Origin: a virus
Lineage: Duplodnaviria; Caudoviricetes
DNA: 34,043 nt
Virus record (IMG/VR): IMGVR_UViG_3300032269_000057
Span: 1-34,043 of that record
Reading direction: 5' to 3' (one strand)
Part shown: positions 371-33,171 of the stretch, one piece after another
Layout of the letters: each line of letters starts with the position of its first letter
Position numbering within the stretch: position 1 is the first letter of the stretch
Notes under the pieces: model-generated
What the model was told of the DNA's origin: nothing
The model's input: the letters and a program-made list of their open reading frames with translations, nothing else
Database searches by the model: none
Program-made: the position numbers and the translations under genes

Positions 371-468
371 GTTTAAATACAACTAAGGGTTTTGGATAGT
401 AGACATTAGCCATAGAAGTAAAGAAACTAGAAATACTCAATAACGAGTAAACATTTAAGGGGATTTAA

Positions 469-1439: not shown

Positions 1440-1579
1440 GAGAGCTTTGTAGGCTTAGAAAAAACATGGGTTTAGCTAAATTTCGTGTTTACATAAGCAA
1501 GTCGCCAAATTTACACCAATTTTTAAACAGTTTTGTTGACCAGTATTCAAAGGGAAATAGGGGAACAGGGTGGAAATAG
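1406..1579 (+). CDS. Small hypothetical protein (57 aa, MYEQARFECAVRELCRLR...KGNRGTGWK)
   Basis: Open frame bridging 1439-1570; not in the ORF track. Confidence 0.65.
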   Translation: MYEQARFECAVRELCRLRKNMGLAKFRVYISKSPNLHQFLNSFVDQYSKGNRGTGWK

Positions 1580-4434: not shown

Positions 4435-4734
4435 ATGGCATACGCTAAAAAAGTTGATAAAAACCAAGGTGATGTTGTTAAAGCACTACGAAGCATGGGT
4501 GCTGATGTATTTCTTTTGCACATGGTCGGTGGCGGTATACCAGACCTCATGGTTGCCTATGCTGGACACACTATTCTAATTGAAATTAAAGACGGTGAAG
4601 ATAAGAAATTGACCCCACAACAATTAACATTATTTGCTAATTGGAAGGGCGGACACCTAGCAAGGGTAAATTCCGTGCAAGAAGCTGAAGAACTGCTAAA
4701 ATGGATAGAAGATAATGAGGATTGCTATGACTGA
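4435..4734 (+). CDS. VRR-NUC-like endonuclease / resolvase
   Basis: GIPDLMV...LIEIK...LTPQQ motif. Confidence 0.8.
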   Translation: MAYAKKVDKNQGDVVKALRSMGADVFLLHMVGGGIPDLMVAYAGHTILIEIKDGEDKKLTPQQLTLFANWKGGHLARVNSVQEAEELLKWIEDNEDCYD

Positions 4735-5086
4735 TAATGTTGCTATGTTTGCTGCCACTTTGTTGCACTCAGCGACAAATACTCATTTTTTCCATTGGTC
4801 TACCAATTCCTATTCCCAACATAAAGCCCTAGGCAAATATTATGACGAAATTGTTGAATTGGTTGATGACTATGTTGAAGCCTACATGGGCTGTTACGAA
4901 CAAATTAAAAAGTTTCCTAGCGTATATCACCAGCCTAAAGAGCCGCTTGCTTACTTGGTTTCATTAAAGAATTTTGTCCAAGACGCTAACGCTGATTTGC
5001 CCCAAAAACAAGAATTGGTCAATATTGTTGCCGAAATCCAACAACTTATTGACTCAACCATTTATAAACTTAAATACCTAAAGTAA
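4727..5086 (+). CDS. Ferritin/Dps-like four-helix protein (DUF5856-like)
   Basis: HFFHWST.SYSQHKAL..YYD...D.YVE and terminal YKLKYL; GAGGA RBS favours the ATG at 4727. Confidence 0.75.
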   Translation: MTDNVAMFAATLLHSATNTHFFHWSTNSYSQHKALGKYYDEIVELVDDYVEAYMGCYEQIKKFPSVYHQPKEPLAYLVSLKNFVQDANADLPQKQELVNIVAEIQQLIDSTIYKLKYLK

Positions 5087-5723: not shown

Positions 5724-6053
5724 ATGGATAATAAACTGTCGAAGTCTGTAGAAAAGAACTTAAATAGGGCTGGAAGAAAGCCAGGAGTGCCTAATAAAGC
5801 CACTCAAGAGGCTCGTGAAGCCGTTAAAGCTATTCTTGATAGCAACCTACCATTTATTCAATCATGGATACAGCAGACCGCTGATGGCATATTTGACGAC
5901 CAAGCTGGCAAATGGATTGTTCAGCCTAACCCAGCCAAAGCTTGTGAGATTGTCCAAAACCTAGTTGAATACTCTGTACCTAAACTTGCAAGGACTGAAG
6001 TTGTAGGTGATGAGAAAGCCCCACAAAGAATGGTTATCTCTTGGAAAAAATAG
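5724..6053 (+). CDS. terS: Probable terminase small subunit
   Basis: GRKPGVPNK N-terminal motif, PKLARTE C-terminal motif, position upstream of terL. Confidence 0.7.
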   Translation: MDNKLSKSVEKNLNRAGRKPGVPNKATQEAREAVKAILDSNLPFIQSWIQQTADGIFDDQAGKWIVQPNPAKACEIVQNLVEYSVPKLARTEVVGDEKAPQRMVISWKK

Positions 6054-6805
6054 ACCTTAGACTAGGGGATTGTCTTGAGGTTATGAAGTCTTTGCCAAGC
6101 CAAAGCATTGATTTAACTGTTACAAGCCCTCCATACGATAATCTACGCACCTACAACGGATATTCGTTTGACTTTGAAGGCATAGCTAAAGAGTTATATC
6201 GAGTCACCAAAGATGGTGGAGTGGTTGTTTGGGTGGTAGGTGATGCCACAATCAATGGTTCAGAAACAGGCACATCATTCAAACAAGCCTTATATTTCAA
6301 AGAAATAGGATTTAATTTGCATGACACTATGATTTGGAATAAAGGTACATTTACTGCGGTTGGTGCGCTTACTAGTCGCTATGCGCCTGTATTTGAGTAT
6401 ATGTTTGTATTATCCAAAGGTCAGCCAAAAACATTTAACCCTATAAAAGACCGTCAAAACAAAACATTTGGAAGAAAAAATTACGGAACAATAAGGCAAA
6501 TAGACGGAACTACAAAACCCATGTCTAACATTGGAAAACCTGTTGCTGAGTATGGTCAAAGACATAATGTATGGGAATTAACACCTGAAAAAAGTAATTC
6601 AAATAGATTACATCCTGCTATGTTTCCAGAGTCATTGGCACATGACCACATTGTTTCTTGGTCAAATGAAGGTGACACAGTATTAGATTGCTTTCTTGGT
6701 AGTGGTACTACAGGCAAAGTAGCCAAGCAATTAAATCGTAAATTTATAGGCATTGAAATAAGCCCTGAATACCTAGAAATAGCCTCAAAACGCATATATG
6801 GATGA
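6041..6805 (+). CDS. Orphan N4-cytosine/N6-adenine DNA methyltransferase (beta class)
   Basis: TSPPY catalytic motif N-terminal, HPAMFP, and VLDCFLGSGTT SAM-binding motif C-terminal. Confidence 0.92.
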   Translation: MEKIDLRLGDCLEVMKSLPSQSIDLTVTSPPYDNLRTYNGYSFDFEGIAKELYRVTKDGGVVVWVVGDATINGSETGTSFKQALYFKEIGFNLHDTMIWNKGTFTAVGALTSRYAPVFEYMFVLSKGQPKTFNPIKDRQNKTFGRKNYGTIRQIDGTTKPMSNIGKPVAEYGQRHNVWELTPEKSNSNRLHPAMFPESLAHDHIVSWSNEGDTVLDCFLGSGTTGKVAKQLNRKFIGIEISPEYLEIASKRIYG

Positions 6806-14340: not shown

Positions 14341-15233
14341 ACCCACACGCAGAATATAAAAAGGCTTACGAACACCTACACGCTGGGCGTTATGACGCTG
14401 GTTTTAGGCTATTTGAATACCGTTGGCATCCTGAAATACTTGCCAACCAAGTAAGTCCTTATACCCAAAAGCCTAAAGGCCCTGTTGTTTGGCGTGGCGA
14501 GTCCCTTTTAAACAAGTCTATTGTTATTCAAATGGAGCAAGGCTTTGGCGACATATTTATGTTTGCTAGGTTTTTACCATTTTTAAAGGTAATGGGCGCA
14601 AAAAAGGTAGTTTTACTTACGCATGGCTCATTGCTTAGTCTTTTAGGGCAATTTGAGTGTATAGATGTGCTGACAAACCAGCCAGAATGTCCTGATGTGG
14701 TCGAATGTGACTACTGGTTAGGCAATATGAGCCTTCCTTACTATATTGCTTGCTCTAACAAGTATGCAAAGTCATTATTCCCCATTACAACCAAGAAAAT
14801 AGTAGGCTCTGAAGGGTATATGGATGCTAAACCTTCCAATATTGAACCCAAAATAGGCGTTAATTGGGGCGCTAGTCGCAACATTCTATTTCATATTAAG
14901 TCTATTCCTGACCACCAAATGTACAAGCTAGTAGGGGATAACGCTTATAGTCTTTCACCAGAGCATGACGGCTTTTTTCACCCTTTGCCTGACGATGGCT
15001 GGAAAACAGATTGGGCGGTCACAGCAAGCCATATGAAGGCTATGAAAGGCATAATCACAGTTGACACAGGAACGGCTCACCTTGCAGGCGCATTGGGCGT
15101 TAAAACCATAGTCTTGTTACCTCAAGAAGAATACATTTGTTGGCGTTGGAAAAATGGTAGTTGGTACGACTCAGTTATTGCACTGCGTCAAGAAGAATAT
15201 GAGCGTGTACCCGATTTGATAAGGAGAATGTAA
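14322..15233 (+). CDS. GT-B fold glycosyltransferase (GT9-like); true start upstream of the ATG at 14532 and non-canonical
   Basis: EQGFGD, ITVDTGTAHLAGALG and WRW..WYDS motifs; the frame is open from 14313 and encodes family-typical GF.LFEYRW...WRGESL; start coordinate uncertain. Confidence 0.8.
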   Translation: MSTNNLNPHAEYKKAYEHLHAGRYDAGFRLFEYRWHPEILANQVSPYTQKPKGPVVWRGESLLNKSIVIQMEQGFGDIFMFARFLPFLKVMGAKKVVLLTHGSLLSLLGQFECIDVLTNQPECPDVVECDYWLGNMSLPYYIACSNKYAKSLFPITTKKIVGSEGYMDAKPSNIEPKIGVNWGASRNILFHIKSIPDHQMYKLVGDNAYSLSPEHDGFFHPLPDDGWKTDWAVTASHMKAMKGIITVDTGTAHLAGALGVKTIVLLPQEEYICWRWKNGSWYDSVIALRQEEYERVPDLIRRM

Positions 15234-29717: not shown

Positions 29718-29915
29718 GCCTTTATTAAGCTGTCCTAAAGGCGTTTCTAGGCGTTTTACACGGTTGTCTGGGTGACATACCCATTTATTTCCCATGCGCT
29801 TTATCATAGCCTTAGAATTGGCTGCATTTTGCTTTATTAATAATTCATACATTGGATAGCTAAAGCGCCCAGCTTCAATCATTTGTTTTAATAAACTCTT
29901 GTCGTTCTTTGTCAT
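29685..29915 (-). CDS. Hypothetical protein
   Basis: AGGGGAAAACC-ATG RBS; MGNKWVCHPDN. Confidence 0.7.
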   Translation of the reverse strand: MTKNDKSLLKQMIEAGRFSYPMYELLIKQNAANSKAMIKRMGNKWVCHPDNRVKRLETPLGQLNKGSRVLSHFNSF

Positions 29916-30000
29916 GGTTTTCCCCTATAGTAATTTCACCACCATTAACATTAATAGTGTATGACCCATCTTTTTCTTTAATTATTACAAAATCATTCAT
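29875..30000 (-). CDS. Small hypothetical protein (41 aa, MNDFVIIKEKDGSYTINV...)
   Basis: ATGA overlap with the upstream gene; not in the ORF track. Confidence 0.45.
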   Translation of the reverse strand: MNDFVIIKEKDGSYTINVNGGEITIGENHDKERQEFIKTND

Positions 30001-30561: not shown

Positions 30562-30791
30562 AATTTCCCCATTTCTTCTTTCATTTTCATAGATTTAAGG
30601 TAATTTCTTAAAGCCTTGTCATCTTCATTAAATATTTTGTTGTAAAGCTGACCAGTAGGAATTCTAGGAATGTCTGGTTTAAAAGTGCCGTGCAACATAA
30701 AAGAAGAAAAGGCCCTACAAGCTAATTCGTATTGTTTGCACCTTTGCGCCCATTCACAGTCGTCACATGGGCTTATTTCATTTAATTCCAT
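30558..30791 (-). CDS. Cys-rich hypothetical protein
   Basis: PCDDC...C...LAC..F; start chosen at MELNE after AAGGG. Confidence 0.7.
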   Translation of the reverse strand: MELNEISPCDDCEWAQRCKQYELACRAFSSFMLHGTFKPDIPRIPTGQLYNKIFNEDDKALRNYLKSMKMKEEMGKL

Positions 30792-30969: not shown

Positions 30970-31055
30970 ATTTTTCCCCTTTTGAAAAGTTTAATTTATT
31001 AAAAATTCATGCAGTTTGTTATAAGTGTTTACCCTAGCTTTTGCACAAATACGAC

Positions 31056-31106
31056 AACTTTACAATAAACACAAAAAACTTTACATTAAACCCAAAAAAC
31101 TTTACA
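31056..31106. repeat. 21-bp tandem direct repeat (about 2.4 copies), iteron-like
   Basis: AACTTTACA cores at 31056, 31077 and 31098; unit AACTTTACA(A/T)TAAAC(A/C)CAAAA. Confidence 0.8.
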
Positions 31107-31111
31107 AAAAT

Positions 31112-31197
31112 GGGCTGTATTTGGCAGTTATTACGAATGGGCGAGAAAGCCGTAAAATTACCCAATTACTGCATCCTACATTGACGGCTTAACGCCC
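31112..31197 (-). ncRNA. Candidate pseudoknotted structured RNA
   Basis: Four nested stems plus a 7-bp loop pairing AAGCCGT/ACGGCTT. Confidence 0.6.
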
Positions 31198-31210
31198 TAA
31201 AAAATAAGGT

Positions 31211-31266
31211 GGGGGCGGTCTGCACGGACAGACTTGGTAGATGGAAGGGGAAACCATCTCGCCCCC
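31211..31266. ncRNA. Three-way-junction RNA element with an RBS-complementary loop
   Basis: Perfect stems 31211-17/31260-66, 31218-22/31229-33, 31239-44/31254-59; strand unresolved. Confidence 0.65.
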
Positions 31267-31270
31267 GTTG

Positions 31271-32020
31271 TTAGTTTAAACCATTCTTTAGTTTGTATAT
31301 TTTAAGAAGGGCCAAAAACATTTCATAGCCATCTCTAAGGTCTTGCTCGCTATGCTCATATATTGCTACTTCCCCAGTAGTGCCATTTATGTATACATTG
31401 GCGCACCGTGCAGAGGGCGCTAAAACTTCTCTATAGGCTGCAAGCTGTAGTGTATGCTCTAGGTAGGGTGTTTGTTCACCAGGGGATTTTTCCGTGGTCT
31501 TAAAGTCAATTACTACCCCAGAAAAGTCATGGCGTGGTTTACAGTACAAATCGCACTTACCACCATAGCCTTCTTGGGCGTTGACCAAACTTTGTTCGGG
31601 TATCCAGAATTGAGCGCCAAAATGGGCCGTTATAGCCTTGTCTACAGTAATTACATAGGAAGGTGACTCAGGTATAAATTCGTTGTTATAGAAGCTCTCT
31701 ATCCAATCATGAATAGCAGTGCCTCTGTCCATTGCTTCTCTAGATTTAGACTTAGAAAGCTCTAATATTCTGGCAATGTAGTCCTTTTCTTCTTCCCCAT
31801 CTTGTTTAGGGTTTTCAGCAGCAGCTTTAATGGCCTCTGTTTGAAACCATGTATTTAATCCATTTTTAGCTAATTGCCCATTTATGGTGGACACAGAAGG
31901 GACTAAAGTACCTGGTGCTGATTTAGCGTCACGCAAAGTAGTGTTGCGTTCTTTACCATTTTTACCAATGGTGGTATACCTTGGTTCGCCTGTTTTGGCG
32001 CAATACCAATGCTCACTCAT
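31271..32020 (-). CDS. PD-(D/E)XK exonuclease (Cas4/RecB-like fold)
   Basis: PSVSTI, RGTAIH, E..L, YGGKCDL, IDFKT, QLAAY motifs. Confidence 0.85.
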   Translation of the reverse strand: MSEHWYCAKTGEPRYTTIGKNGKERNTTLRDAKSAPGTLVPSVSTINGQLAKNGLNTWFQTEAIKAAAENPKQDGEEEKDYIARILELSKSKSREAMDRGTAIHDWIESFYNNEFIPESPSYVITVDKAITAHFGAQFWIPEQSLVNAQEGYGGKCDLYCKPRHDFSGVVIDFKTTEKSPGEQTPYLEHTLQLAAYREVLAPSARCANVYINGTTGEVAIYEHSEQDLRDGYEMFLALLKIYKLKNGLN

Positions 32021-33151: not shown

Positions 33152-33171
33152 GTTATTTCTCCCTTTGGCGC

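Follow-up and report, generated by a model that had tools for sequence, protein, structure and literature searches.

Can a phage that carries no cI-type repressor control its early genes with a small folded RNA? The question is raised by a short stretch next to an exonuclease gene, for which the original prediction proposed a multi-stem RNA whose loop is antisense to a ribosome binding site (RBS) shared by early genes. The window analyzed here is the whole of a complete phage record of 34,043 bases with direct terminal repeats. Its late block encodes terminase, portal, capsid, tail and lysin. The early region is divergent, with Erf, SSB and a PD-(D/E)XK exonuclease reading leftward and a Cro/YdaS-like gene and a replication initiator reading rightward. 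Domain searches of the window and 15 near-complete relatives found a tyrosine integrase in 0 of 16 genomes, an S24 repressor domain in 0 of 16 and HTH_3 in one (controls positive in 14, 9 and 14 of 14 genomes), which bears out the description of the phage as cI-less. Neither a partition gene nor an antirepressor was among the listed PHROG matches of the window's 54 scanned proteins.

The phage belongs to a large, uncultured group (1390 homologous nucleases). No close prophage was found in the species-genome collection, which yielded only two short MAG contigs and one weak match of 32%; capsid matches reached at most 51% identity, and a tRNA search gave no host signal. A betaproteobacterial host is only hinted at by a match to the Rfam Betaproteobacteria-1 RNA at 170-295 on the plus strand (87.8 bits), upstream of the predicted target gene 469 and also present in 8 of the 13 relatives scanned. 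Genes for a Dps-like protein (4715-5086), a DNA methyltransferase (6041-6805) and a glycosyltransferase-9-like protein (14532-15233) were also seen, and a DUF5672 gene runs from 33507 across the record end. Three 13-nt direct repeats with a spacing of 21 nt (31056-31110) and an imperfect inverted repeat near 31036, which recurs in relatives upstream of an internal promoter-like site, are possible operator or origin sites.

Structure, conservation and predicted processing of the element

Read leftward, the element begins 4 nt past the exonuclease stop codon and consists of a 7-bp outer stem, a 6-bp hairpin with the loop UUUCCCCUU, a 5-nt linker and a 5-bp hairpin, followed by an unpaired ACC (Table 1). 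The three stems and all RBS positions of the original prediction are present in the sequence. Its reading of the loop also stands, but not that of the tail: the triplet after the outer stem is ACC in 78 and GCC in 1 of 79 close relatives (ACCU 72, ACCC 6 and GCCU 1 when four bases are counted), and a U-rich run comes only after it.

Table 1. Positions in the window of the predicted RNA, its parts, its neighbors and its predicted targets
Feature	Positions	Strand	Remarks
Predicted small RNA, 59 nt	31208..31266	-	Outer stem, anti-RBS hairpin, linker, small hairpin, unpaired 3' end
Exposed loop UUUCCCCUU, complement of AAGGGGAAA	31245..31253	-	CCCCUU in 79/79 close relatives; covaries with RBS in distant lineages
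Second hairpin, UCCGUG loop	31218..31233	-	Shrunk to a 7-8 nt bulge in other lineages
Unpaired ACC after outer stem (RCC)	31208..31210	-	Predicted RNase P determinant
Pseudoknotted RNA-like element	31112..31197	-	Separate and optional; same array; not required by the anti-RBS RNA
PD-(D/E)XK exonuclease gene	31271..32020	-	Host cistron of the RNA and predicted target; AGGGG in 38/38 distinct upstream sequences
Predicted target RBS of exonuclease gene, AAGGGGAAA	32023..32031	-	Loop complement
Predicted target RBS, AAGGGGAAA, first gene after RNA array (30969-30778)	30973..30981	-	AGGGG in 12/13 of family
Predicted target RBS GGGGAAA, gene 30561-30337	30564..30570	-	Not conserved in family: AGGGG in 1, GGGGA in 4 of 24
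Predicted target RBS AGGGGAAAACCAU, gene 29915-29685	29914..29926	-	AGGGG in 3/9
Predicted target RBS of rightward early gene 469-786	457..463	+	AGGGG in 16/19 of family
Predicted target RBS of small membrane-protein-like gene (about 1570-1719)	1559..1564	+	AGGGG in 24/26 of family
RBS of first early-left gene (start 33151)	33157..33165	-	Imperfect match AAGGGAGAA here; AGGGG in 20/21 distinct relatives

The minus-strand fold (-27.4 kcal/mol, z -4.98) was equaled in stability by 0 of 200 shuffles and the plus-strand fold (z -2.62) by 4 of 200. The minus strand was the more stable one in 59 of 67 distinct elements, and G-U variants within the stems fall on it. The exonuclease has 216 relatives in the viral collection, of which the best 80 were kept, one of them (L001) identical to the window. 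In 79 of these 80 the element lies 4-6 nt after the stop codon, and these copies comprise 37 distinct sequences; the remaining locus is truncated. When the 10 variants closest to the window were aligned without a model, 99.4% of cells were paired and 5 pairs showed two-sided changes. A covariance model built on these variants recovered the element from 46 of 63 sources, each time at the same site. In the 44-row alignment fitted to it, two-sided variation was seen at all 18 pairs, although fitted alignments lean to the model. Most of lineage B, where the third stem is only a bulge, was missed by this model; RNAalifold returned no pairs from the raw 37-row MAFFT alignment because stem lengths differ. 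Among 113 distant loci, 64 carry the element and 49, including truncated loci and those of the loop-E type described below, were scored without it. We conclude that this is a genuine element of the minus strand. Contigs of mixed relatives from one metatranscriptome run (7% of words) show summed depth rising over 31171-31238 and a contig end at 31206, which says nothing on level, strand or ends of a transcript.

The element overlaps the last nuclease codons in 14 of the 67 variants. In lineage B (L098-L143, nuclease 3' end) it is the outer stem that does so, and 5' processing would therefore cut the nuclease mRNA before its stop codon. Expanded variants with extra hairpins occur in L120 and L122; an added loop in L120 complements an AAGGCGG site that precedes a gene of the same phage.

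An NCC end is present in 64 of 67 distinct elements across lineages, counted with the terminal U-A pair opened. An acceptor-like helix with RCC is described as the recognition feature of bacterial RNase P, the RCC pairing with GGU in L15 of the enzyme (PMC4919922), and C4 and CI are both given as RNase P substrates (PMC5499578). The RCC end and the G-rich +1 position of the element would fit a 5' end made by RNase P. By this analogy the element appears to have the shape of an RNase P substrate, and its cleavage from the early transcript by the host enzyme is likely.

ACC-ended small RNAs form a modular array after the nuclease gene. It can include a tRNA: in L002 and L154 a tRNA gene starts only a few bases from the ACC end, an arrangement like that of a processed RNA array. 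In 27 of 74 close relatives (L007, L009, L020 and others) the element is directly followed by an optional hairpin, which ends in ACC, contains a variable insert and has a GAA/AGUA motif resembling loop E. A different ACC-ended RNA lies just after the nuclease stop codon in L087, L090-L095, L149, L152, L163, L166 and L171. It has a loop-E stem and a long C-rich loop, and the early genes of these loci often carry AGGUG, which the loop does not match. The loop of L163 matches GAAGGAGA sites of its own genes, and a target search for the RNA of the AGGUG lineage gave scattered, unconvincing sites.

Maturation with the help of an adjacent pseudoknot, as first suggested, did not hold up. This conserved neighbor spans about 86 nt and has many invariant unpaired bases and five helices, of which four show two-sided changes; it covaries by itself at 10 pairs (12 rows) and had no match in Rfam. 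It is present in 59 of 74 close relatives and in L151, absent from the other 15 and from all 64 distant loci that bear the anti-RBS element, and found in two loci that lack the latter. Since it is missing from so many element-bearing loci, it is not needed for maturation of the anti-RBS RNA. One possibility is that it is a ribozyme or a ligand-binding RNA.

Loop-matching ribosome binding sites and their joint change with the loop

The six start regions of the window that pair best with the loop belong to four early-left and two early-right genes. The complementary RBS had been described as common to the leftward early genes and confined to them. Its four leftward sites stand, but SSB, Erf and the 67-aa gene use AAGGA, GGAGG and AGGAG in the window, and the confinement has to be given up because the rightward early genes 469 and about 1570 use a matching RBS too. 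Counted by family in close relatives, AGGGG is rare before SSB (4/19), Erf (5/54) and the 67-aa gene (0/40). As proposed, pairing in the window does extend into the start codon for gene 29915; it involves a variable stem and a patchily distributed gene, and we do not take it as conserved. The statement that structural genes mostly use AAGGA or AGGAG holds in so far as AGGA/GGAG precedes 13 of the window's 25 late genes; GGGGA precedes none.

Across nine genomes, 45 of 307 early-region genes versus 1 of 248 late genes are preceded by a site that matches the phage's own loop over 7 nt or more. The early share was the larger in all nine, with matches on both strands. Genes were called by a simple script, the set was formed without G013 (late block mis-anchored) and G014 (other RNA type), and Fisher p values from it are overstated because related genomes are not independent. 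In the window the frequency of the motifs is only mildly raised (AAGGGGA 5 versus 3.0 expected; AAGGGGAAA 2 versus 0.37): it is motif placement at start codons, not motif abundance, that is above chance. Targets often come first after an intergenic gap: 30 of 49 have an upstream gap of 40 nt or more, versus 50 of 196 other early genes. Blocking them could thus also have polar effects on the genes that follow.

Pairing is only 7-9 nt long, from a 9-nt loop. No second antisense segment was found, and only the C-run loop gave a consistent antisense peak in all three variants. The linker matches the His-Trp-Tyr codons of the exonuclease, but this match is imposed by the protein, and other variants have no linker. 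Sites for the second loop (UCCGUG and CACGG variants) showed no enrichment.

The original prediction expected loop and RBS to vary together across related phages. They do so in distant lineages, switching jointly from 4C/4G to 3C/3G, CCCCUA/UAGGGG and 5C/5G with few exceptions. The nucleases of these lineages share about 42-50% identity where computed, and part of the set is the best 80 of 428. A nested C-run loop was present in 151 of 205 loci with a start; these gave 84 distinct pairs of loop and RBS, including 5 that were loop-E-type or false picks. Eight of the 9 distinct pairs with a three-C loop have a three-G RBS, the exception being L150, whose nuclease has no G-run RBS. CCCCUA goes with UAGGGG in both loci that have it (L147, L155), and L164 joins a five-C loop to GGGGG sites. 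Of 68 pairs with UU after the C-run, 67 have AA ahead of the G-run, the L150 case among them being spurious; in lineage C, whose loop has no UU, 6 of 9 RBSs are not AA. On a quick tree (72 rows, with lineage A thinned to every third row and loop-E and false picks left out) the 3C loops form one subclade. L126, inside it, has four C and four G, probably through recombination. The covariation comprises about four lineage-level changes on this tree, L126 among them.

The same switch is seen genome-wide. In the two 3C phages, AAAGGGA precedes 5 and 4 early genes and AAGGGGA 0 and 1; in the eight phages with 4-5C loops, AAGGGGA precedes 3-8 early genes and AAAGGGA 0-2 (0-1 in seven of them, 2 in the window). 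Late genes keep AGGA/GGAG in 3G and 4G phages alike (12-14 genes each). The RBS of a rightward gene on the opposite strand switches with the loop as well, so pairing would not be only in cis and action in trans would be needed. For six lineage types the cognate assignment of loops to RBSs ranks first of 720, and the 79 distinct pairs match over 8.39 nt versus at most 7.89 in 2000 shuffles, which ignore kinship. Some observations run counter to this pattern. Lineage C RBSs fit the lineage A loop better than their own (7.1 versus 5.6 nt), B4 RBSs do so slightly (9.2 versus 8.8), and L122 and L145, missed by the script, combine a 4C loop with a 3G nuclease RBS. Inside lineage A, no fine-scale covariation was found (p 0.17). 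As far as sequence comparison goes, the conserved loop, its covariation with the RBS and the early-gene identity of the targets nevertheless support the core idea of a multi-target anti-RBS RNA.

Proposed function and alternative explanations

Our preferred reading, which we put at a probability of roughly 60%, is that the element is a stable antisense RNA that acts in trans to shut off translation of the tagged early genes, a delayed negative feedback ending the early phase. Host RNase P would release the small RNA from the early-left transcript, and the RNA would accumulate until its loop occupies tagged RBSs. Synthesis of the nuclease would then stop, as would that of genes that often head transcription units. 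As a side effect, superinfecting kin whose RBSs carry the same tag would be excluded. Transcription and processing of the RNA (by analogy with C4 and CI), pairing in vivo, a repressive outcome and the feedback role are our inferences. A broader and more tentative proposal is that cI has been replaced by an RNA address system, in which a private Shine-Dalgarno tag marks an early regulon on both strands, a mini-RNA made by RNase P reads it, and one-base shifts of tag and loop (4G/4C, 3G/3C, UAGGGG/CCCCUA) define groups of control and exclusion. We regard this as possible and distinctly less probable than the feedback role.

The main rival keeps the same RNA and the same pairing but makes immunity its main job: in a silent, non-integrated carrier state, superinfecting kin would be blocked, 3G and 4G phages would form heteroimmune groups, and the RNA would stand in for cI. 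A lambdoid-like divergent early region with only a Cro/YdaS-like gene would suit such a role, as would the lack of S24 domains, the near lack of HTH_3 and the example of C4, which is reported to give P1 and P7 their heteroimmunity by such pairing (PMC12197685, PMC5320573). It is nevertheless unlikely given the lack of a tyrosine integrase in the 16 genomes, of a partition gene among the scanned proteins and of a close prophage in the collection. Moreover, immunity determinants would tend to diversify, whereas this loop is invariant among close relatives.

Alternatively, the loop might be a generic anti-Shine-Dalgarno mimic directed at host mRNAs or a ribosomal factor, with loop and phage RBSs both tracking the RBS preference of the host. 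The 16S tail is pyrimidine-rich, as is the loop, and in another lineage the loop-E-type RNA that occupies this place has a long C-rich loop mismatched to the AGGUG sites of its own early genes. Yet only selected early genes switch with the loop while late genes stay AGGA/GGAG, and a host-directed RNA would be expected to select against perfect matches in the phage's own genes, which makes host targeting improbable.

We rate a role only in cis just as low: here the element would serve the processing, stability or termination of the exonuclease mRNA and perhaps fold back onto the RBS of that gene. Its fixed place at the stop codon, the overlap with the last codons in some variants and a U-rich run after ACC in 24 of 46 variants are what such a role would predict; the switching of opposite-strand RBSs with the loop is not, and the tRNAs and other RNA modules directly downstream need read-through. 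An intrinsic terminator was rejected as a candidate: a U-run follows the stem at once in only 2 of 46 variants, and a terminator scan did not call the element. A functional plus-strand transcript, serving as an RBS mimic or GGA-type protein decoy, is very improbable, for although that strand also folds it is usually the less stable one, the stem G-U variants occur on the minus strand, the conserved RCC sits at the minus-strand 3' end, and the three extra G-U pairs once cited in its favor can form in only 12 of 41 variants.

On our preferred reading, an antisense RNA that would end the early phase, it appears that a whole group of early genes is addressed by one 59-nt element by way of an RBS variant reserved for them, in phages without tyrosine integrase or cI-type repressor. 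If this is true, it would provide a protein-free way to end the early phase or exclude kin, explain why some phage genes keep a non-consensus RBS, and put natural orthogonal RNA-RBS pairs on offer. No description of this RNA was found in the full-text literature, where a bare listing in the alignments of Fremin et al. (PMC10690425) or in the Weinberg 2017 supplement (PMC5737381) is possible.

Comparison with C4, CI and tRNA-like RNAs

The element matched no Rfam family. A match to C4-type families, a check that the original prediction had proposed, was not obtained at any scanned locus: C4 (RF01695), c4-2 and c4-a1b1 gave no match in the window (E up to 5), at 13 loci (gathering cut-off), at 4700-5050 of L021 (E up to 10) or at 12 distant loci (E up to 1). 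With tRNA acceptor/T-arm mimics such as the tRNA-like domain of tmRNA it shares an acceptor-like stem, a coaxial short hairpin and a discriminator-CC, and a weak match to the tmRNA end was obtained (18.9 bits versus a cut-off of 47). Unlike tRNA and tmRNA, however, it ends in CCU or CCC instead of CCA and has neither G3-U70 nor a canonical T-loop, and ARAGORN called 0 genes.

The element would work like C4 of P1 and CI of P4 but is not a member of the C4 family. C4 of P1 and P7 is described as processed by RNase P and as pairing through a loop over an RBS (PMC5320573, PMC12197685), and its 3' end is mostly CACC in the alignment of Weinberg 2010 (PMC2864571). Like C4 (RF01695), the element is a small multi-stem RNA, here a predicted one, with a G-rich 5' end, and it has a three-stem junction in the window variant and in lineage C, the third stem being weak or a bulge in other variants. 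Differences are nevertheless considerable. At 55-66 nt it is shorter than C4 (about 77-90 nt), and its antisense hairpin comes first, with no leading tetraloop hairpin, whereas C4 has a short-loop hairpin first and the antisense loop second. C4 has two antisense segments (a', b') and bipartite targets, which may be another difference, as one segment was found in the element. The target of C4 is an antirepressor operon in a temperate phage, but the element has about 3-10 scattered predicted targets on both strands, in phages without tyrosine integrase or cI-type repressor and with no antirepressor among the listed matches of the 54 proteins.

CI of P4 is described as an RNase P substrate processed from the very transcript that it controls, and as control by RNA without a repressor protein (PMC4825925, PMC5499578). 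The element resembles it in the proposed RNA-only control and in its predicted processing by RNase P, a likeness drawn from published descriptions. CI acts through premature termination at two sites that flank it in one leader. The antisense matches of the element were located at RBSs some 230 and 760 nt distant, with others on different transcripts. In the literature compared, the control exerted by C4, CI, Sar and OOP concerns in each case a single gene or operon of a temperate phage; the complement of this element is instead an RBS tag shared by several genes in several operons.
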